64,000 nt of DNA. Source: Candidatus Methylomirabilia bacterium (GTDB lineage Bacteria > Methylomirabilota > Methylomirabilia > Rokubacteriales > CSP1-6). Position 1 is the stretch's first letter. Each line of letters starts with the position of its first letter. Where the stretch lies: positions 298-64,297 of the forward strand of contig JBGQHJ010000004.1 of NCBI GenBank assembly GCA_041497895.1, given 5' to 3'. Position numbers and translations under genes: made by a program. Below, one piece after another: positions 19,425 through 62,477 of this stretch. The notes under the pieces were generated by a model. It did no database searches, was not told the origin of the DNA, and saw only the letters and a program-made list of their open reading frames with translations.

Positions 19425-19475
19425 CGAGAGACCCCCGTCGATTCGGGCAGTTACGGCCGGCGGCGGCGCGACCGC

Positions 19476-19493
19476 CGAGGCGGCCCCGCCTCG
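19476..19493. promoter_or_regulatory. Inverted repeat CGAGGCGG-cc-CCGCCTCG; candidate enhancer (UAS) for the hsp20 sigma-54 promoter
   Basis: 8-bp arms, 52-69 nt upstream of the -24 element. The arms resemble the TGAGGCGG/CCGCCTCA arms at 27557-27587 and 61149-61166. Confidence 0.3.
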
Positions 19494-19581: not shown

Positions 19582-21747
<2,166 letters not shown>

Positions 21748-25980: not shown

Positions 25981-26118
25981 TGCGGTAAGGCTGAAGAATC
26001 AGGACGTTGGCAGGGCCGACGCACACCTGCGTGGGGAGGGCGTGCCTCAGTCGGGGCCGGGCGGCCCCGAACCGGCGGGCCGCCGCTCGGGTCACGCCAC
26101 CAGGCCGTCACTCGCCCA

Positions 26119-26941: not shown

Positions 26942-27424
26942 CTACTTCTTCAACAGACCGAGTGCCTCGCGGGCCTTGCGGGCCGAGAGGGTCATGTCAC
27001 CCTTCTTGCAGGCGGCATCCGCCTGCTGGACGAGCGCGCCGGCCTGCTTCACCCGCGGCGCCTGGATGTCCTGCCCGCGCGGCACCGGAGGCTCCTGCTG
27101 GCTGCGGGGCGCCTGAATGTCCTGCTGGCGCGGTGCCTGAATGTCCTGCTGCCGCGGTGCCTGAATGTCCTGCTGCCGCGGTGCCTGGATGTCCTGCTGG
27201 CGCGGTGCCTGAATGTCCTGCTGCCGCGGTGCCTGAATGTCCTGCGACCGGGCGCCCGCCTGACTGCGAGGAGACTGGATGTCCTGGCTCTTGGCCTGGG
27301 CGCTCTTGAGCGCGGCCTTGGCCTGGGCCAGCTCCGCCGGACATGGATCGGCAGCTCGGGCCACTCCGGGCGTCGTGAGCGCGATGATCCCGAGACCGAG
27401 CACGACAGCGACGACTTGCCTCAT
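26942..27424 (-). CDS. Secreted tandem-repeat protein with eight QDIQ(A/S)PR repeats; unknown function
   Basis: ATG 27424 is preceded by AAGGAGA. Signal peptide MRQVVAVVLGLGIIALTTPGVARA. Repeats are flanked by short helical regions each containing Cys. GC3 is high in this frame. Confidence 0.7.
   Translation of the reverse strand: MRQVVAVVLGLGIIALTTPGVARAADPCPAELAQAKAALKSAQAKSQDIQSPRSQAGARSQDIQAPRQQDIQAPRQQDIQAPRQQDIQAPRQQDIQAPRQQDIQAPRSQQEPPVPRGQDIQAPRVKQAGALVQQADAACKKGDMTLSARKAREALGLLKK
27111..27254 (-). repeat. Tandem 24-bp repeat x6 (plus-strand unit gcctgaatgtcctgctgccgcggt) inside the repeat-protein CDS
   Basis: Copies start at 27111, 27135, 27159, 27183, 27207 and 27231. Degenerate copies are at ~27060 and ~27273. 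In frame, 8 aa per unit (QQDIQAPR). Confidence 0.9.
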
Positions 27425-27587: not shown

Positions 27588-29054
27588 GCCCTTGATGTTG
27601 CCGATCGGCGTGAGTGAAACCACGCGGCGGGAGATGTCGAGGCGGTGCAGGGTGTCGACCACCGCGGTCAGGTCCTTGTAGGCGAACCCGGCTTCCTCGG
27701 CCACTCCGGACTTGGACGCCGCGCGCACGACGATCCCGCGCTCCGCCATGCTCTTGATCAGGGTCTCCCCCCCCACTCGGCGCTTGGCCTGCGCGCGCGA
27801 CATGGTGCGGCCCGCGCCGTGGGCCGTCGAGCCCCAGGTCTCGGCCATGGCCCGTGCGGTCCCGACCAGGAGCGCGGAGCCGGTCTCCATGGAGCCGCCG
27901 ATGATCACCGGCTGGCCGATCTCCCGGTAGTCGGCGGGCACGTCGGGCTCGCCCGGCCCGAAGGAGCGCGTGGCGCCCTTGCGGTGCACGACCAGCTCCA
28001 GCGCCCGGCCGTCCACGACGTGGCGCTCGAGCTTGGCCGTGTTGTGGCAGACGTCGTAGACCACGGAGAGGCCGAGGGCATGCGCGTCGCGCCCGAACAC
28101 CTTGGAAAACACTTCCCGGATCCGGTGGGTGATCACTTGCCGGTTGGCGAACGCGGTGTTCGCCGCGGCCGTCATGGCCCCGAAGTAGGCCTGCCCTTCC
28201 TTCGACCGAAACGGCGCGCACGCGAGCTCGCGGTCCCGCACGCTGATGCCGTACTGCGGCATCACCCGGTCGAACATCTTGAGGTAGTCGGTGCCGACCT
28301 GATGACCGAAGCCGCGCGAGCCGCAGTGGAGCATGACGAAGATCTGACCGGGGCCGTCCACGCCGAGGACGCGCGCCACGCGCTCGTCGTGGATGGCGCC
28401 GGGCCGCACCACCTGGATCTCCAGGTAGTGGTTGCCGGAGCCCAGCGTCCCGAGCTGCTCCATCCCCCGCTCGAGCGCCCGCGCGCTGACCTGCTCGGGA
28501 TCGGCCCCGGGCAGGCAGCCGCCACTCTCGATGTGCGCGAGATCCTCGGGCCACGCGTAGCCGCGCGCCACGCACCAGCCGGCGCCCTCCACCATCACCT
28601 TGCGGAACTCCGACCCGGAGAGGCGCACGAAGCCCTTCGCGCCGACCCCGGCCGGCACCGAGCGGAACAGGGCATCGATCAGCTGGGGCAAGCGCGGCCG
28701 CACCTCGGCCTCGGTGAGGCCGGTCCGCACGAGCCGCATCCCGCAGTTGATGTCGAACCCGATGCCGCCCGGCGAGATCACCCCCGAGTCGGCGCGGAAC
28801 GCGGCGACCCCGCCGATCGGGAAGCCGTACCCCCAGTGGCCGTCGGGCATGCAGAGCGACGCGCGCACGATGCCGGGCAGGCAGGCCACGTTGGTGACCT
28901 GCTCGAACACGCCGTCGTCCATCTGCTCGAGCAACGGGCCCGAGGCGTAGAGACGCGCCGGCACCAGCATGCCGGGCTTCGCCTGCGCCGGGATCTCCCA
29001 GACGCACTCCTCGACCCGCCGGGCCGCGCCGCGCAGCGATTCGGTGATCTTCAT
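27585..29054 (-). CDS. rtcB: RNA-splicing ligase RtcB (3'-phosphate/5'-hydroxyl RNA ligase)
   Basis: 489 aa. GFDINCGMRL, GSGNHYLEIQ, HCGSRGFGHQ, HRKGATR and STAHGAGR motifs. Confidence 0.95.
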   Translation of the reverse strand: MKITESLRGAARRVEECVWEIPAQAKPGMLVPARLYASGPLLEQMDDGVFEQVTNVACLPGIVRASLCMPDGHWGYGFPIGGVAAFRADSGVISPGGIGFDINCGMRLVRTGLTEAEVRPRLPQLIDALFRSVPAGVGAKGFVRLSGSEFRKVMVEGAGWCVARGYAWPEDLAHIESGGCLPGADPEQVSARALERGMEQLGTLGSGNHYLEIQVVRPGAIHDERVARVLGVDGPGQIFVMLHCGSRGFGHQVGTDYLKMFDRVMPQYGISVRDRELACAPFRSKEGQAYFGAMTAAANTAFANRQVITHRIREVFSKVFGRDAHALGLSVVYDVCHNTAKLERHVVDGRALELVVHRKGATRSFGPGEPDVPADYREIGQPVIIGGSMETGSALLVGTARAMAETWGSTAHGAGRTMSRAQAKRRVGGETLIKSMAERGIVVRAASKSGVAEEAGFAYKDLTAVVDTLHRLDISRRVVSLTPIGNIKG

Positions 29055-39191: not shown

Positions 39192-39207
39192 AGCAATCCT
39201 AGTGCCA
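39192..39207 (-). promoter_or_regulatory. Sigma-54 promoter upstream of the HAD-ATPase / mgtA operon
   Basis: The minus strand reads TGGCAC-tagga-TTGCT. Predicted +1 is ~39181, only ~4 nt before GTG 39177, so the transcript is near-leaderless. Confidence 0.7.
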
Positions 39208-39351
39208 CGCCGGCCGGTTCGGAAGACCCCGTTGGATGGCGATCATGGCCCGACCGGAGCGGGACACCCCTGCCCCACTGTCGTGGGAATTCCGTGCGGG
39301 CGGACCGGCTGGGCGAGGAGCGGATCGTCGATTCGGCGCGCGCTTGGGGCC

Positions 39352-39367
39352 GGGCACCACGCTTGCA
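39352..39367 (+). promoter_or_regulatory. Sigma-54 promoter upstream of the pal-like / gdh / DUF3300 / DUF2950 / OPT operon
   Basis: GGGCAC-cacgc-TTGCA. Predicted +1 is ~39378, 3 nt before ATG 39381. No Shine-Dalgarno is visible. Confidence 0.65.
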
Positions 39368-51751: not shown

Positions 51752-51881
51752 GGTAGAAGCCGCGCCAATTCAACCGCTTGGCGCGGGCGCGCGGACGAGT
51801 TGCCGAGGCACGCGCGCCCCGGTGAGGCCCGCCCGCCCCAGCGCGTGACGCCGGAAGGCCCGATCTAGCGAGCATTTCCAT

Positions 51882-58011: not shown

Positions 58012-59397
58012 TCATGCGCTCGGTGGATTCGCGATGAGGCCTTCGCGCATGAGGAGCGCGACCGCTTCGCGCGCCTCCCGCATGGTCCTGGCCGCGTCGG
58101 TGTAGAGCCGCTCCCAGTCCTTCGATAAGACCGCGACACCGTCCTCCTGGGCCGCGACTCCCGCCGCGGCGGCCACCCGGGGAAAGACGTCCCACTCGTC
58201 CATGCGCGGCAGGATGTCCTCGTCGTGGATCGACCGTGACTCGGCGAAGCGCGCCAGCTCCCGGGCGACGCTCCGCGCCATGCCGTCCGTGATGGCCCGG
58301 GTGCGAACGTCGAGAGCGCCCCGGAACAGGCCCGGGAAGACCAGCGAGTTGTTGAGCTGGTTGGGAAAATCGCCCCGCCCCGTCGCGATCACGCGGGCGC
58401 CCGCCGCCCTGGCCTCCCACGGCCAGATCTCCGGAACCGGATTCGCGCAGGCGAACACGATGGCGTCGCGGGCCATGCCCGCCACCCACTCGGGCTTGAT
58501 GATCCCGGGCCCGGAGGCCGAGAACGCCGCGCAGACGTCCGCGCCGCGGAGGGCGTCGGCGATGCCGCCGACCAGGCCGTCGGCGTTGCTCTCCCGGCAC
58601 ACGCGCCACTTGTCCGGGAAGCGCGCCTGCTCGGCCTCGATATCGTGCCGCCCCCGATGCAGGATGCCCGCTCGGTCGCACGCCACGATGGCGCCCGGCT
58701 CGACGCCGCTGGTGGTGAGCAGGCGATATCCCGCGACGTTCGCCGCCCCGATTCCGACCATCACGATCCGCACCCGGCCCAGGTCCTTGCCGACAACCTT
58801 GAGGGCGTTGAGCAGTCCGGCCAGGAGGCAGGTGGCCGTCCCCTGCTGATCGTCGTGCCAGACGGGAATGCGGAGGTCCCGCCGGAGCGCGTCGAGCACG
58901 CGGAAGCACTTGGGCTGGGCGATGTCCTCCAGGTTGATCGCCCCGAAGGCGGGCTCGATCAGCTTGACCGCGCGCGTCAGCTCGTCGGGATCCTTGGTCG
59001 CCAGGCAGATCGGCACCGCGTCGACGCCGCCGAGGTACTTGAAGAGCATCGCCTTGCCTTCCATGACCGGCAGGCTGGCCTCGGGGCCGATGTCGCCGAG
59101 GCCGAGCACTCGCGTGCCGTCGGTCACGATCGCGATCGAGTTGCCCTTGTTGGTGTGGGCGTACACCTGCTCTGGATCGGCCTGGATGGCCCGGCACGGG
59201 GCGGCCACACCGGGCGAGTACCAGATCGCCAGGTCCGACAAGCCACGGATCGCGCACTTCGGCATCACCTGCAGCTTGCCGCGGTAGAAGGGATGCAGGC
59301 GCAGGGCCTCTTCCGCCGGCTTCGCCGCCCGCGCGAGCAGCTCCTCCATCCCGGAAGGCGGCGGCGTCTTCATGATCACACGCTCCATCGCCTGCAA
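58012..59397 (-). CDS. NAD(P)-dependent malic enzyme (short form, no PTA domain)
   Basis: YSPGVAAPC, VTDGTRVLGLGDIGP and GIGAANVA. The true start is probably GTG 59379 or ATG 59373, because the sigma-54 promoter overlaps the 59397 ATG. Confidence 0.9.
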   Translation of the reverse strand: MQAMERVIMKTPPPSGMEELLARAAKPAEEALRLHPFYRGKLQVMPKCAIRGLSDLAIWYSPGVAAPCRAIQADPEQVYAHTNKGNSIAIVTDGTRVLGLGDIGPEASLPVMEGKAMLFKYLGGVDAVPICLATKDPDELTRAVKLIEPAFGAINLEDIAQPKCFRVLDALRRDLRIPVWHDDQQGTATCLLAGLLNALKVVGKDLGRVRIVMVGIGAANVAGYRLLTTSGVEPGAIVACDRAGILHRGRHDIEAEQARFPDKWRVCRESNADGLVGGIADALRGADVCAAFSASGPGIIKPEWVAGMARDAIVFACANPVPEIWPWEARAAGARVIATGRGDFPNQLNNSLVFPGLFRGALDVRTRAITDGMARSVARELARFAESRSIHDEDILPRMDEWDVFPRVAAAAGVAAQEDGVAVLSKDWERLYTDAARTMREAREAVALLMREGLIANPPSA

Positions 59398-59408
59398 CTC
59401 GACTGCCA
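59393..59408 (-). promoter_or_regulatory. Sigma-54 promoter upstream of the malic enzyme gene
   Basis: The minus strand reads TGGCAG-tcgag-TTGCA. Predicted +1 is ~59382, 3 nt before GTG 59379. Confidence 0.6.
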
Positions 59409-59460
59409 GGCGAGGCGCCCACGATCACGGACACTTCTGATGCGAGCATGGAGGCACGCG

Positions 59461-59476
59461 CGCCCCAGCTGGGGCG
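59461..59476. promoter_or_regulatory. 16-bp perfect palindrome cgCCCCAGCTGGGGcg; candidate bEBP enhancer between divergent sigma-54 promoters
   Basis: Centrally placed between the -24 elements at 59408 (-) and 59553 (+). Homologous in sequence and position to the palindrome at 61149-61166. Confidence 0.4.
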
Positions 59477-59552
59477 GTGACTCCCCCGGTCGAGCTGAGC
59501 GTCCCGGTCGCCGGAGGATCGCCTGGTCTGCCCTCGTCAGCACTTGAGCGCC

Positions 59553-59568
59553 AGGCACGGGGTTTGCT
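59553..59568 (+). promoter_or_regulatory. Sigma-54 promoter upstream of the small 2-TM protein gene
   Basis: AGGCAC-ggggt-TTGCT, preceded by the conserved box ACTTGAGCG (59542-59550). Predicted +1 is ~59579. ATG at 59590. Confidence 0.65.
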
Positions 59569-59589
59569 CTCCCTCTGGAGGACGAGATC

Positions 59590-59901
59590 ATGAGCTATCA
59601 ATTCACCCGTATCTGGAGCCGGGCCTCGGTCGTCGTCGGGACCGGGGTGATCGTGCTGACCGTGCTCGTCGCGTCGTGGCTCGGCTTCTCGAGCGAGCCC
59701 GAGTTGGAGCGCTTCGCCTCGGCGAGCCGCATCCTGACCGGCCTGATCGTGAGCCTCGCGGGCCTGGTCGTCGGGGGCACCATGATCGTCGCGGGGCAGC
59801 TCGTCTCCGTGCTCCTCGACCAGCGCGAGCTCCTGGTCGAGATCCATCAGGCGCTCACCGCGCAGGCCAACCCGGCCTCGGAGGTGGCCCGACGGCCCTG
59901 A
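59590..59901 (+). CDS. Small membrane protein (103 aa, two TM helices plus an amphipathic C-terminal helix); unknown family
   Basis: MSYQFTRIWSRASVVVGTGVIVLTVLVASWLGFSS...GGTMIVAGQLVSVLLDQRELL. Clear paralog at 61286..61594. Confidence 0.65.
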   Translation: MSYQFTRIWSRASVVVGTGVIVLTVLVASWLGFSSEPELERFASASRILTGLIVSLAGLVVGGTMIVAGQLVSVLLDQRELLVEIHQALTAQANPASEVARRP

Positions 59902-59924
59902 CCCGTCACCGGCTGGCGGGGCTC

Positions 59925-60350
59925 CTATCCTGGGCCGGTACTTTCTGGGGATCCCACGACGGCCCGAATGACGTCGGTGGCCGTGAGGATCCCGACCACC
60001 CGGCCGGCGTCGGCCACCGGCAGGGCGCCGAGCTTGTGCTCGTGCATGATGCGGGCGGCGTCGCGAATGTCCGCGTCGGGTCCCACGGTTATCACGCCCC
60101 AGGTCATGATCTCGTTGGTCCTCAGACGGCCGAGGGTCCCGACCAACCGGTCCGGCTCCTCTTGCAGGCACCATCCGAGGATCACCAGCTGCAGATCATG
60201 GTCGGTGACCATCCCGATGAGCCGGCGGTCGCTATCGAGCACCGGGAGATGGCGCACCTGCCGGGAGCGGAGGATGCTCCACGCATCCGCGATCGTCGCG
60301 TCGTGGCCGATCGTGATCACCGGACCGGTCATCAGGTCTGCGACCCGCAT
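59925..60350 (-). CDS. CBS-pair domain protein
   Basis: 141 aa from ATG 60350, preceded by AAGAGGAG. Two CBS repeats. Confidence 0.85.
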   Translation of the reverse strand: MRVADLMTGPVITIGHDATIADAWSILRSRQVRHLPVLDSDRRLIGMVTDHDLQLVILGWCLQEEPDRLVGTLGRLRTNEIMTWGVITVGPDADIRDAARIMHEHKLGALPVADAGRVVGILTATDVIRAVVGSPESTGPG

Positions 60351-60400
60351 CGCTCCTCTTTCACGAGTCTCGCTCCGCACGCTCCTGGATCGCGCGGCTC

Positions 60401-60425
60401 GCCGCCGGTCTCACCTGCCGGCGGC
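60401..60425 (-). terminator. GC hairpin (8-bp stem gccgccgg/ccggcggc, 9-nt loop) between two CBS genes; possible attenuator or terminator
   Basis: Located 18 nt downstream of the stop of CBS gene 60443..61003. No U-tract. Confidence 0.3.
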
Positions 60426-60442
60426 GATCACGCGCCCGGGGG

Positions 60443-61003
60443 TCAGGCCTCGGCGCCCCAGCGACCCGGGAACGAGATCACGCCCTCGTCGAGCATCCGG
60501 ACCACCGTCTTCAGGACATCGCCGGCCGCGAGCATGCCGATCACCCGATCGTGCTCCACGACCGGCACGGCCCCGATCTTGTTGGCGTGGATGAGCCGCG
60601 CGACCTCACGCAGCAAGGCATCCGGCTTCGTGGTGATCACGCCCCAGGTCATCACGTCCTTGACGGTCTGGGTCCGGAGCGCCCGATCCAGATCCTCGAA
60701 CGCGTCGCGGAGGGCGGGGCTGAGAACCGTCTGGCGCAGGTCGCGGTCGCTTACGATGCCGACGAGATGCCCGGTGTCGTCCAATACCGGCGCGTGGCGG
60801 ATATTCCGGGTCCGCATGGCCTTGACTGCGGCACCGACGAGCATCCCCTCACGGAACGTCACGGCCGGACGGGTCATGACGTCGCGCACCCGCACGACCC
60901 CCTCCGGCCAGCCGGCCTCTTCCAGCTCGCGCCCGGCCCGCCCCGGGCGTTTCGGATTCCTGGTTCGCACGGCTCGGGTGATCGCTCTCTTCGGATGCTT
61001 CAT
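60443..61003 (-). CDS. CBS-pair domain protein with a basic N-terminal extension
   Basis: 186 aa from ATG 61003, preceded by GGAAGGAGGA. N-terminal region KHPKRAITRAVRTRNPKRPGRAGR, then two CBS repeats. Confidence 0.8.
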   Translation of the reverse strand: MKHPKRAITRAVRTRNPKRPGRAGRELEEAGWPEGVVRVRDVMTRPAVTFREGMLVGAAVKAMRTRNIRHAPVLDDTGHLVGIVSDRDLRQTVLSPALRDAFEDLDRALRTQTVKDVMTWGVITTKPDALLREVARLIHANKIGAVPVVEHDRVIGMLAAGDVLKTVVRMLDEGVISFPGRWGAEA

Positions 61004-61045
61004 GGGAGGTCCTCCTTCCATCGACGCGGTCGAGTTCGTGCGATG

Positions 61046-61061
61046 TGCATCTGCCCTGCCA
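61046..61061 (-). promoter_or_regulatory. Sigma-54-like promoter upstream of the tandem CBS genes
   Basis: The minus strand reads TGGCAG-ggcag-ATGCA. Predicted +1 is ~61035, 32 nt before ATG 61003. Confidence 0.5.
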
Positions 61062-61073
61062 GGGTCGAGTGGT

Positions 61074-61087
61074 GGTGATCGATCACC
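61074..61087. promoter_or_regulatory. 14-bp perfect palindrome GGTGATCGATCACC just upstream of the 61046 promoter; possible regulator site
   Basis: Lies 13-26 nt upstream of the -24 element. Confidence 0.25.
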
Positions 61088-61148
61088 CTCGATCCAGGAC
61101 ATTAGCCTCCATCCACCGTTGCGCTCCGGCTCGGTACCCGGGGCATCG

Positions 61149-61166
61149 CCGCCTCAGCTGAGGCGG
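61149..61166. promoter_or_regulatory. 18-bp perfect palindrome CCGCCTCAGCTGAGGCGG; candidate bEBP enhancer between divergent sigma-54 promoters
   Basis: Its CYCAGCTGRG core ends 79 nt upstream of the plus-strand -24 element, the same distance as the 59461 palindrome. The sequence between the conserved blocks has diverged. Confidence 0.4.
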
Positions 61167-61241
61167 TAATCTCCCGCACCGCCGAGGGCTCGATGCCCCG
61201 CTCGAGGTCAGCCCGCGTGCCTTTGCAAGGACTTGAGCGGA

Positions 61242-61257
61242 GGGCACAAAGCTTGCT
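61242..61257 (+). promoter_or_regulatory. Sigma-54 promoter upstream of the small 2-TM protein / lipoprotein / MlaC-like operon
   Basis: GGGCAC-aaagc-TTGCT, preceded by ACTTGAGCG (61231-61239). Predicted +1 is ~61268. GGAGGAAG is followed by ATG 61286. Confidence 0.65.
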
Positions 61258-61285
61258 CGCTCATACGGCGGTGGAGGAAGAGGCG

Positions 61286-61594
61286 ATGCGCTATCGATTC
61301 ACTCGCAGTTGGGGTCAGGCGTCGGTGATGGTCGGCGGGGGCGTGTTCGTAGTCGCCCTGATCCTCGCGTGGTGGCTCGGCTTCTCGAGCGACGACGGGT
61401 TCGAGCGCTTCTCCCCGGCGGTGCGCATCCTGGCCGCCCTGGTCGTGAGCTTGGCTGGGCTCCTGGTGGGGGGGACCATGATCGTGGCGGGACAGCTCGT
61501 CTCCGTGCTGCTCGACCAGCGCGCCCTGCTGGCGCAGATCCGCGAGGTGCTCACGGAGAAGGCCGGCGCGGGCGAGAAGGCCCTCGGTCGTTGA
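61286..61594 (+). CDS. Small membrane protein (102 aa); paralog of 59590..59901
   Basis: MRYRFTRSWGQASVMVGGGVFVVALILAWWLGFSS...GGTMIVAGQLVSVLLDQRALL. Confidence 0.65.
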   Translation: MRYRFTRSWGQASVMVGGGVFVVALILAWWLGFSSDDGFERFSPAVRILAALVVSLAGLLVGGTMIVAGQLVSVLLDQRALLAQIREVLTEKAGAGEKALGR

Positions 61595-61608
61595 CAGGAG
61601 GGAGATCG

Positions 61609-61869
61609 ATGCGCTACACGAGATCGACCGCAGCAGCGCTGATGCTCGCCGCCGCGGCAATATTCGTGGCGGGGTGCGCGACGGGTCGCATCGCCTGGGA
61701 GAAGGCCGGCATCACCCAGGCGGACCGGGAGCGGGACGAGAACGCGTGTCTCCGGTCCGCCATCACCGCGGATAGCGGTGGCGGGCAGTTGCTCGCCCCC
61801 TACTGCATCGACCGTGAGATCTACACTCGATGCATGGAAGGCCGCGGCTACACCGTTCATTCCCAGTGA
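61609..61869 (+). CDS. Small lipoprotein (86 aa), unknown function
   Basis: GGAGGGAG precedes ATG 61609. Signal peptide with lipobox FVAGC. Three further Cys residues. Confidence 0.6.
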   Translation: MRYTRSTAAALMLAAAAIFVAGCATGRIAWEKAGITQADRERDENACLRSAITADSGGGQLLAPYCIDREIYTRCMEGRGYTVHSQ

Positions 61870-62477
61870 AGCGATTCCTCACCCTGGGGGTGATCGGCCT
61901 GGCTTGCACGCTCGGCTGGGCGCCGGGGGCCGGCGGGGCCGGGTCGGGTCCGACCGAGCAGCTCAAGGGCGCCATCGACCGTGTGCTCCAGGTCCTGGAG
62001 GATCCGGCTCTCAAGGGTGAAGCGCGGGCCGCGGAGCGCCGTCGCGCGCTCAGACAGATCGCCGACGAGATCTTCGACTTCGACGAGACCGCGCGTCGGG
62101 CCATGGCGCAGCACTGGCGGACGCTCACCGAGGCCCAGCGCAAGGAGTTCGTCGAGCTCTTCAGCGATCTGCTGGAGCGCACCTACACGTCGAAGCTCGA
62201 GCTCTACGGCGGGGAGCGGATCCAGTACTCCGCCGCGCGGATCGAGGGCGACTTCGCCACCGTCTCCACCCGGCTCATCACGGAGAAGGGCACCGAGGTG
62301 CCGATCGACTACCGGATGCTCAGGCAGGGAGAGCGATGGCGGATCTACGACGTCAGCATCGAGGGAGTCAGTCTCGTCGCCAACTTTCGTGGGCAATTCA
62401 ACAACGTCATCCGCACCTCCTCCTACGACGAGCTCCTCCGGAGGCTGCGGAGCCGGGGCGCGGAGGTCCGGCCGTAG
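61866..62477 (+). CDS. MlaC/Ttg2D-family phospholipid-binding periplasmic protein
   Basis: GTG 61866 overlaps the upstream stop (GTGA). FDFDETARRAMAQHWRTLTEAQRKEFVELF and WRIYDVSIEGVSLVANFRGQF are typical of the Tgt2/MlaC family. Confidence 0.85.
   Translation: MKRFLTLGVIGLACTLGWAPGAGGAGSGPTEQLKGAIDRVLQVLEDPALKGEARAAERRRALRQIADEIFDFDETARRAMAQHWRTLTEAQRKEFVELFSDLLERTYTSKLELYGGERIQYSAARIEGDFATVSTRLITEKGTEVPIDYRMLRQGERWRIYDVSIEGVSLVANFRGQFNNVIRTSSYDELLRRLRSRGAEVRP

Follow-up and report, generated by a model that had tools for sequence, protein, structure and literature searches.

Within a 64,000-nucleotide stretch of the genome of a Candidatus Methylomirabilia bacterium (contig JBGQHJ010000004.1 of assembly GCA_041497895.1; hereafter, the window), we analyzed the control regions of two paralogous genes for small membrane proteins, here called p1 (59590..59901, plus strand) and p2 (61286..61594, plus strand). 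The window has a G+C content of 72% and is 99.8% identical to contigs of three NCBI metagenome-assembled genomes (MAGs), GCA_041499595.1 among them. The p1 product has 103 amino acids (aa) and two hydrophobic segments, its paralogue p2 has 102 aa, and the two proteins are 60% identical. To the left of p1, a malic enzyme gene (58012..59373, minus strand; 453 aa as called in the public record) points in the opposite direction, and between p1 and p2 lie two CBS-pair domain genes (59925..61003, minus strand; individually, 60443-61003 and 59925-60350), which are likewise transcribed away from the p2 control region. Downstream, p2 is followed by the remaining genes of its operon (61609..62477, plus strand), which encode an 86-aa lipoprotein (61609-61869, lipobox FVAGC) and MlaC (~61866-62477).

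The two control regions have diverged except at three islands, as had been proposed by a reading of the letters made without database searches (hereafter, the sequence-only reading), and each of the islands lies where that reading had placed it. Specifically, these are a palindrome (CGCCCCAGCTGGGGCG at 59461-59476 and CCGCCTCAGCTGAGGCGG at 61149-61166), a box, ACTTGAGCG, at 59542-59550 and 61231-61239, the last base of which falls 3 nt before the GG of the -24 element in both copies, and the -24/-12 elements themselves, with GGCAC-N5-TTGC at 59554-59567 and 61243-61256. The shift from one copy to the other is 1689 nt for each of the three islands, and the spacing is therefore identical in both. 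In a gap-free alignment of the two copies, the palindrome agrees at 12 of 14 positions, the box at 9 of 9, and GGCAC and TTGCT at 5 of 5 each, against 15 of 43 positions in the spacer; the two copies of the box are its sole exact matches in the window. The -24/-12 elements belong to sigma-54 promoters of the form TGGCAC-N5-TTGCW, in which the GG and GC doublets are exactly 10 bp apart: AGGCACGGGGTTTGCT for p1 (59553..59568, plus strand; GG 59554-59555, GC 59566-59567), which is conserved in orthologues, and GGGCACAAAGCTTGCT for the p2-lipoprotein-MlaC operon (61242..61257, plus strand). The exact GGCAC-N5-TTGC pattern occurs seven times in the window, relative to 0.51 expected, a count that was reached in none of 100 shuffles, and all seven occurrences stand upstream of open reading frames. 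The 10-mer core of the palindrome, CYCAGCTGRG, is not significant in the window by itself (two found, 0.62 expected, with 14 of 100 shuffles reaching two), and its significance was for that reason sought in position and orthology.

For this footprinting, 46 loci were fetched, yielding 38 distinct upstream regions for examination, and the palindrome was accepted in an orthologue with at most one mismatch to GCCYCA-NN-TGRGGC; 31 homologous upstream regions from Methylomirabilota were aligned with MAFFT to give mean pairwise identities per segment. GGCAC-N5-TTGC, or a one-base variant of it, is found upstream of nearly all of the 38 distinct homologues, with the GG 27-74 nt before the ATG. The palindrome is conserved at a fixed distance from the -24 element, lying 75-81 nt from the GG, and mostly 78-80 nt, in ~33 of 37 regions. 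Among the 31 aligned regions, pairwise identity is 97% for GGCAC, 95% for TTGCT, 83% for the palindrome, 80% for a CGAGGC motif 6 nt upstream of the palindrome, 68% for the box, 62% for a TTTGC motif, and 42% for the ~48-nt spacer. A recent duplication of the whole segment does not account for this pattern, as the spacer is 35% identical in the paralogue pair and 42% identical in the family as a whole, versus 83-97% in the palindrome and the -24/-12 islands. Further, both paralogues are present in several related genomes, which, together with the 60% identity of the proteins, indicates that the p1/p2 duplication is old and that neutral sequence has been randomized since. The sequence-only reading's suggestion of a UAS (upstream activating sequence) for a bacterial enhancer-binding protein (bEBP) is thus supported, in that the palindrome and its spacing are kept in orthologues across a diverged spacer.

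The element that recurs is larger than the palindrome. With CGAGGC upstream of the palindrome and CTCCC downstream of it, the conserved sequence extends to GRGGC-N6-GCCYC-A-NN-T-GRGGC-N6-GCCYC, a symmetric element of ~36 bp that consists of two 16-bp dyads, GRGGC-N6-GCCYC, with centers 20 bp apart, or about two helical turns. At p1, this element (enhancer A, 59451..59486) comprises the dyads GAGGC-N6-GCCCC at 59451-59466 and GGGGC-N6-TCCCC at 59471-59486, the outer half of the second being degenerate, and the previously noted palindrome (59461-59476, core 59462-59475) is the junction between them. At p2, the corresponding element (enhancer B, 61140..61175) comprises GGGGC-N6-GCCTC at 61140-61155 and GAGGC-N6-CTCCC at 61160-61175, again with a degenerate outer half, around the palindrome at 61149-61166. 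Thus, the palindrome is real and conserved, but it does not hold up as the unit: its two central bases are free (GC, TC, GA, AC, and CG all occur), and the recurring module is the 16-bp dyad. In distant clades (L003, L018, L021, L022, L024, L026, and L039), both dyads are exact and lie 66-70 and 86-90 nt from the GG. Across the 31 orthologues, the palindrome is symmetric in 95% of cells, with a single variable position that reads C:G in 19 sequences, T:A in 7, and T:G in 3; since it is the sequence, and not mere pairing, that is conserved, a protein-binding site is indicated rather than a hairpin.

The dyad is also enriched in the window and is tightly associated with sigma-54 promoters. GRGGC-N6-GCCYC occurs 10 times, relative to 2.4 expected, and no shuffle out of 100 gave as many; for 9 of these 10 dyads, a sigma-54-type promoter follows 44-88 nt downstream. 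When co-localization was counted at 30-120 nt upstream, 9 of 10 dyads qualified against an expectation of 0.24, a result matched in none of 5000 permutations. A weight matrix trained on non-window sites only recovered five loci in the window, all upstream of sigma-54 promoters, namely those of p1 (36.9 bits) and p2 (19.2 bits) and three further loci at 26057, 56530, and 34882 (15-19 bits), relative to a shuffled mean maximum of 8.6 bits. One possible alternative for the architecture is that an activator dimer recognizes the central 14-bp palindrome, GCCYCA-NN-TGRGGC, and that the flanking GRGGC and CYCCC are secondary. The inner half-sites do carry the highest information content in the family, and the palindrome exceeds the outer-left half-site in pairwise identity, by 83% to 80%. 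However, other promoters in the window have single or tandem dyads without the palindrome geometry. Specifically, at 51805-51839, the dyads are 3 nt apart rather than 4 (such that the center of the central dyad is 1 nt rather than 2), which preserves the dyads and loses the 14-bp palindrome, and single exact dyads stand at 19477, 27558, 56506, and 57991. We therefore take the dyad, rather than the central palindrome, as the likely binding unit of one dimer, and we consider recognition of the palindrome itself unlikely. An 18-bp site with a 6-bp spacer would fit the way in which dimers with a Fis-type helix-turn-helix bind.

The promoters associated with these dyads serve a coherent set of genes. 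A dyad enhancer with its promoter precedes genes for Hsp20, a universal stress protein (USP), and an ADP-forming acetyl-CoA synthetase (promoter 19424, minus strand); DksA/TraR, a cytochrome c, and phosphofructokinase (25980, minus); a repeat protein, a DUF2267 protein, and a CBS protein (27475, minus); a YgaP-like protein and an efflux system (34803, minus); Hsp20, protein-L-isoaspartate methyltransferase (PCMT), and a USP (51751, minus); a CBS protein and an acyl-AMP ligase (51882, plus); a USP (56441, minus); and a CBS protein (57908, minus). The same pairing of dyad and promoter, at the same distances, is found in independent genomes (L047, L051-L054, and L009); for example, the Hsp20 dyads lie 55 and 74 nt from the promoter in the window and in L047 alike. 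Because the enhancer type precedes at least nine further sigma-54 promoters in the window, with genes for Hsp20, USPs, CBS proteins, and DksA/TraR behind them, the p1 and p2 copies are best regarded as members of one sigma-54 stress regulon.

The palindrome does stand in front of the small-protein genes, as the sequence-only reading had it, but it is not private to them, as a divergent sigma-54 promoter is also served. On the malic enzyme side of enhancer A, the promoter TGGCAGTCGAGTTGCA (59393..59408, minus strand) has its GG 44 nt from the nearest dyad, and at least 12 loci keep it, identical or nearly so, in the form TGGCAG(C/T)CGAGTTGCA at 43-45 nt from the dyad, whether the gene that follows is for malic enzyme or a USP. 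On the CBS side of enhancer B, the promoter TGGCAGGGCAGATGCA (61046..61061, minus strand) has its GG 80 nt from the dyad, and its orthologues have the promoter TGGCAGGCCNGTTGCA with the dyad at 65-75 nt. Further, the two sides come apart in some genomes: in L037 (1100-1280), p1 is lost and enhancer A is retained with the malic promoter, and in L012 (430-620), L008, and L016, a CTCAGCTGAG-type enhancer stands before the CBS gene with no adjoining small-protein promoter. These losses and the conserved opposite-strand promoters argue that the palindromes are bidirectional enhancers. With transcription beginning ~12 nt downstream of the GC, starts would be expected near 59578 and 61267 on the plus strand and near 59382 and 61035 on the minus strand. 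We also observed that the predicted transcription starts fall only ~3-10 nt before the start codon for malic enzyme (59373-59408, minus strand) and for the p1 orthologues of L002, L006, L007, and L013, where the distance from GG to ATG is 27-28 nt, which suggests that these mRNAs are leaderless or near-leaderless.

Taken together, the sites are dyad-symmetric and tandem, lie 44-95 nt from the GG, are conserved while their flanks diverge, and recur at other sigma-54 promoters. We consider it quite probable, on this sequence evidence, that the palindrome is the core of a bEBP enhancer, in which two tandem dyads serve two back-to-back sigma-54 promoters within one sigma-54 stress regulon. The control region, with enhancer, promoter-proximal element, and -24/-12 promoter, is the textbook sigma-54 arrangement used bidirectionally. 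A different account would make the palindrome the operator of an ordinary dimeric regulator, either a repressor or, for the divergent gene, an activator of the sigma-70 type, unrelated to sigma-54 activation, in which case the sigma-54 promoters would owe their activation to some other site or to an activator without DNA binding. GC-rich dyads are indeed typical of operators in divergent intergenic regions, and no activator gene is nearby. Nevertheless, no sigma-70-like promoter was seen in 59300-61700, the association of 9 of 10 dyads with sigma-54 sites exceeds the 0.24 expected, the spacing from the -24 element is constant, to within 2 nt, in dozens of genomes, with different values for different gene families, and tandem dyads 20 bp apart are the layout expected for bEBP oligomerization; an ordinary operator is, in our judgment, improbable. 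Least probable by a wide margin is that the islands are duplication leftovers, a repetitive extragenic palindromic (REP)-like repeat, or a hairpin terminator with no regulatory role: modest DNA hairpins could form (-12.7 and -10.7 kcal/mol, z-scores -1.8 and -2.2) and the window count of the 10-mer core does not reach significance by itself, but the paralogues are old and their spacer is randomized, ~33 of 37 orthologous regions retain the element, its position is always between divergent gene starts and never at a 3' end, neither palindrome has a T-run, a terminator call, or an Rfam match (a scan of 59300-61400 gave only one sub-threshold chance match, inside the p1 coding region), and the central loop would be just 2 nt, with the sequence conserved and not co-varying.

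Several observations weigh against the reading of a bEBP enhancer. First, neither an rpoN nor a bEBP gene was found in the window or in an 8-kb public extension to the right. Second, the candidate activator described below was assigned by co-localization only, and several NtrC-type paralogues per genome are possible. Third, both window copies have a degenerate outer right half-site, and helical phasing of the enhancer-promoter distances is weak (Rayleigh p ~0.04 at 10.5 bp, uncorrected for the periods tried). Fourth, the predicted leaders of the p1 orthologues and malic enzyme are very short. Finally, the dyad and IHF-like patterns were defined after inspection of the window, which makes the window statistics partly post hoc, a weakness that the independent loci mitigate.

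Located between the enhancer and the -24 element, the box is borne out only in part as a conserved cis-element: it is kept in part of the family, with a pairwise identity of 68%, and is absent in distant clades as well as from the rest of the island's promoters. A bEBP probably makes no contact with it. Instead of the box, most of these other promoters have a YAA-N4-YYG-RWW element (such as CAAGCGGTTGAAT or TAACTAGCTGATT) whose end falls exactly 18 nt upstream of the GG; the pattern contains the IHF-like core CAA-N4-TTG. In the window, this pattern occurs six times, relative to 1.7 expected, and five of the six lie 18-32 nt upstream of a GG. In the 296 kb of independent loci that we used as a check, it occurs 16 times, with 8 occurrences exactly 18 nt from a sigma-54 GG against 0.006 expected. 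The 18-nt sites are 19441-19453, 25997-26009, and 51768-51780 in the window, all on the minus strand, and others are in L047, L051, L052, L053, L009, L021, and L045. A further IHF-like element, TAATGTCCTGGAT (61092..61104, minus strand), lies between enhancer B and the CBS promoter. IHF sites at sigma-54 promoters are not known to have a fixed spacing, and the rigid 18-nt spacing is tighter than is known for such sites.

The box may be related to this pattern. At p1, the putative promoter-proximal element (59533..59550, plus strand) consists of the box at 59542-59550 and a degenerate equivalent of TTTGC at 59533-59538, and its reverse complement carries CAAGT and resembles the YAA-N4-YYG-RWW of the other island promoters. 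At p2, the putative element TTTGCAAGGACTTGAGCG (61222..61239, plus strand) includes the box at 61231-61239, and its reverse complement, TCAAGTCCTTGCAAA, resembles the same pattern and matches the IHF core TCAA-N4-TTG. The IHF consensus is WATCAANNNNTTR; its core is matched by the p2 reverse complement, TCAAGTCCTTG, and not fully by that of p1, TCAAGTGCTGA, or by the single-copy type, TCAAGTCCCGG. We tentatively suggest that the box and TTTGC might be an inverted copy, displaced by ~10 nt, of an architectural (IHF/HU-type) or UP-like element, while holding this, though the best of the readings, to be rather less likely than not; a separate, gene-specific regulator could instead bind the box. 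In the same genome, a Bac_DNA_binding gene (HU/IHF family) lies ~4 kb to the right of the window, behind a sigma-54-like site. An overlapping sigma-70 or extracytoplasmic function (ECF) promoter was also considered for the box and rejected, as no -10 partner was seen by eye at the right spacing in either copy.

Searches for the trans-acting components were initially negative, as patterns for GAFTGA, Walker A, and the RpoN box, together with tblastn using an approximate PspF query, returned nothing in the window or the first loci, and a pattern search found no RpoN-box motif in the window or L047. Genes for sigma-54 activators are widespread in the phylum, which is indirect support for rpoN in the genome. 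The window does encode a CHASE3-PAS-PAS histidine kinase (19582-21744, plus strand), which is divergent from the Hsp20 sigma-54 promoter and has no adjoining response regulator. Walking outward from orthologues of this kinase, we found in L052 a 469-aa NtrC-type response regulator with Response_reg and Sigma54_activat domains, a Fis-type helix-turn-helix (HTH_8), and a GAFTGA motif. Its orthologues are 465-472 aa long and 77-95% identical across the phylum, and the C-terminal helix-turn-helix, YLRDLLARHDGNVSSAAKAAGIDRKTFHRLINKY, is invariant in eight diverse orthologues; the invariance of this domain is in keeping with that of the DNA target. A USP-USP-APH-AAA operon directly follows the activator gene in six genomes (L052-L057), and the five intergenic sequences that were read (L052-L055 and L057) contain TGGCAC-N5-GTTGC with a tandem-dyad enhancer 55-57 and 76 nt upstream, for which the sequence in L053 is cGGGGCgctcctGTCCCAgcGGGGCgacgccGCCTCA. 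Further, the activator gene of L056 is adjacent to one for a CHASE3-PAS kinase with 58% full-length identity to that of the window. This co-localization makes the NtrC-type response regulator a serious candidate for the activator of these enhancers, with a probability that we would place just short of even, and it would probably be phosphorylated by the CHASE3-PAS kinase at 19582-21744. Downstream of the activator gene, L052-L057 encode two USPs, an APH-like kinase, an AAA_33/APS-kinase-like protein, a single-domain response regulator, and a CBS protein, and in L053 and L054, the operon is followed by genes for a P-type ATPase, a hibernation factor (Ribosomal_S30AE), and a baeRF-family protein. 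The USP-USP-APH operon looks like a dormancy module.

These components can be assembled into a proposed mechanism. Dimers of an NtrC-family activator would bind both dyads on one face of the DNA and assemble an active AAA+ ring, which, via DNA looping, would remodel the closed sigma-54 holoenzyme at two back-to-back -24/-12 promoters. One promoter would drive p1 alone or the p2-lipoprotein-MlaC operon, and the other would drive malic enzyme (from enhancer A) or the CBS pair (from enhancer B). The activator would be a response regulator that is encoded outside the window and phosphorylated by the CHASE3-PAS kinase, and the box with TTTGC would be the site of an architectural, IHF/HU-type protein.

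The small proteins that led us to this regulon form a family of ~100 aa with two hydrophobic segments and an invariant core, GGTMIVAGQ...LDQ. Their homologues come almost only from MAGs labeled Methylomirabilota (Rokubacteria) and from unlabeled metagenomes, with two matches otherwise labeled. Neither p1 nor p2 had a match in Pfam, NCBIfam, PADLOC, or a PDB profile search, with no similarity detectable in these to PspG, PspA, or any other family, and the same searches for a function of the lipoprotein returned nothing. Ancestrally, the minus strand appears to have had a CBS gene and malic enzyme, faced by a plus-strand series of small protein, lipoprotein, and MlaC; in the clade of the window, p1 and two CBS genes are located between malic enzyme and the p2-lipoprotein-MlaC operon. 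That the p2 control region of the window arose by recombination inside the shared palindrome core is speculation.

Beyond these genes, stress genes are densely clustered in the interval 14400-62500, an island where at least 11 sigma-54-type promoters fall within ~45 kb. The island contains genes for two Hsp20 proteins, at least four USPs, at least six CBS-pair proteins, PCMT, and DksA/TraR, as well as for the ADP-forming acetyl-CoA synthetase, phosphofructokinase, malic enzyme, and a P-type ATPase, and past the right edge of the window, it goes on with genes for an HU-like, a GYD, and an M50-CBS protein (L048). At 39192-39367, another divergent pair of strong sigma-54 promoters, formed by TGGCACTAGGATTGCT (minus strand) and GGGCACCACGCTTGCA (plus strand), faces genes for a HAD/AAA protein and a P-type ATPase on one side and for an OmpA-like protein and a Glu/Leu dehydrogenase on the other; between the two promoters, there is only a one-mismatch dyad, GGGACacccctGCCCC. 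Behind promoter 27475, the repeat protein (26945-27424, minus strand) has 160 aa and ~eight tandem QDIQAPR(Q/S) repeats, and searches of Pfam and NCBIfam gave no match and only a weak match to MAP_0585, respectively. The island also includes an RtcB RNA ligase gene (27588-29054, minus strand; Pfam E-value 3e-167), with no rtcR-type activator nearby. In Escherichia coli, rtcBA is dependent on sigma-54 and RtcR.

Among known systems, NtrC enhancers, such as that of glnAp2, share a promoter of the TGGCAC-N5-TTGC type with tandem dyads ~50-150 bp upstream, as well as a response-regulator bEBP (here a candidate) with a Fis-type helix-turn-helix and a paired histidine kinase. They differ in that the half-site here, GRGGC/GCCYC, is unrelated to the TGCACC-N5-GGTGCA of NtrC, the enhancer is closer to the promoter (44-95 nt), and the targets are stress, dormancy, and envelope genes of an uncultured Methylomirabilota bacterium rather than genes of nitrogen assimilation. 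The Psp response (PspF, pspA/pspG) shares the setting of envelope stress and the combination of small membrane or envelope proteins with a sigma-54 promoter, an upstream activator site, and an IHF site (here a putative one); however, p1 and p2 lack detectable homology to PspG and PspA, and the candidate activator has a receiver domain, whereas PspF has none. Divergent sigma-54 pairs with one activator region include zraP-zraSR of E. coli. Further examples come from Desulfovibrio vulgaris, in which the orp1/orp2 operons have divergent sigma-54 promoters, one activator region, and IHF sites between the promoters (PMC3897727), and the DVUA0100 type III secretion operons have divergent sigma-54 promoters with a common activator region (PMC4641369). 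The orp and type III secretion systems thus share with the present loci the back-to-back sigma-54 promoters and the activator sites in a common intergenic region. In contrast to D. vulgaris, the activator gene here lies outside the divergent pair, enhancers of one type recur at roughly a dozen promoters or more, and the architectural-type element is held rigidly 18 nt from the GG in most island promoters.

The motif and the sigma-54 stress regulon of Methylomirabilota are previously undescribed, although the mechanism is classical: a full-text literature search returned nothing on sigma-54 in Methylomirabilis or Rokubacteria, nor on a combined regulon of sigma-54, USP, and Hsp20. To our knowledge, the phylum has no cultured representatives outside of Methylomirabilis enrichments. 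We propose, with some reserve and as somewhat less likely than not, that one CHASE3-PAS kinase and one conserved NtrC-type activator may drive a phylum-wide general-stress and dormancy regulon through sigma-54. If so, the regulon would comprise Hsp20, universal stress proteins, CBS-pair proteins, DksA/TraR, malic enzyme, a hibernation factor, and the small envelope proteins with MlaC, and sigma-54 would hold the role that is held by sigma-S, sigma-B, or EcfG in other phyla. Its promoters would be three-part, with a tandem-dyad enhancer, a YAA-N4-YYG-RWW element ending 18 nt upstream of the GG, and the -24/-12 elements. The value of these results is in annotation and physiology rather than in a new principle: they provide a testable cis-regulatory code, a candidate kinase/activator pair, and about a dozen named target operons, by which the stress and dormancy regulon would become predictable in any Methylomirabilota MAG.

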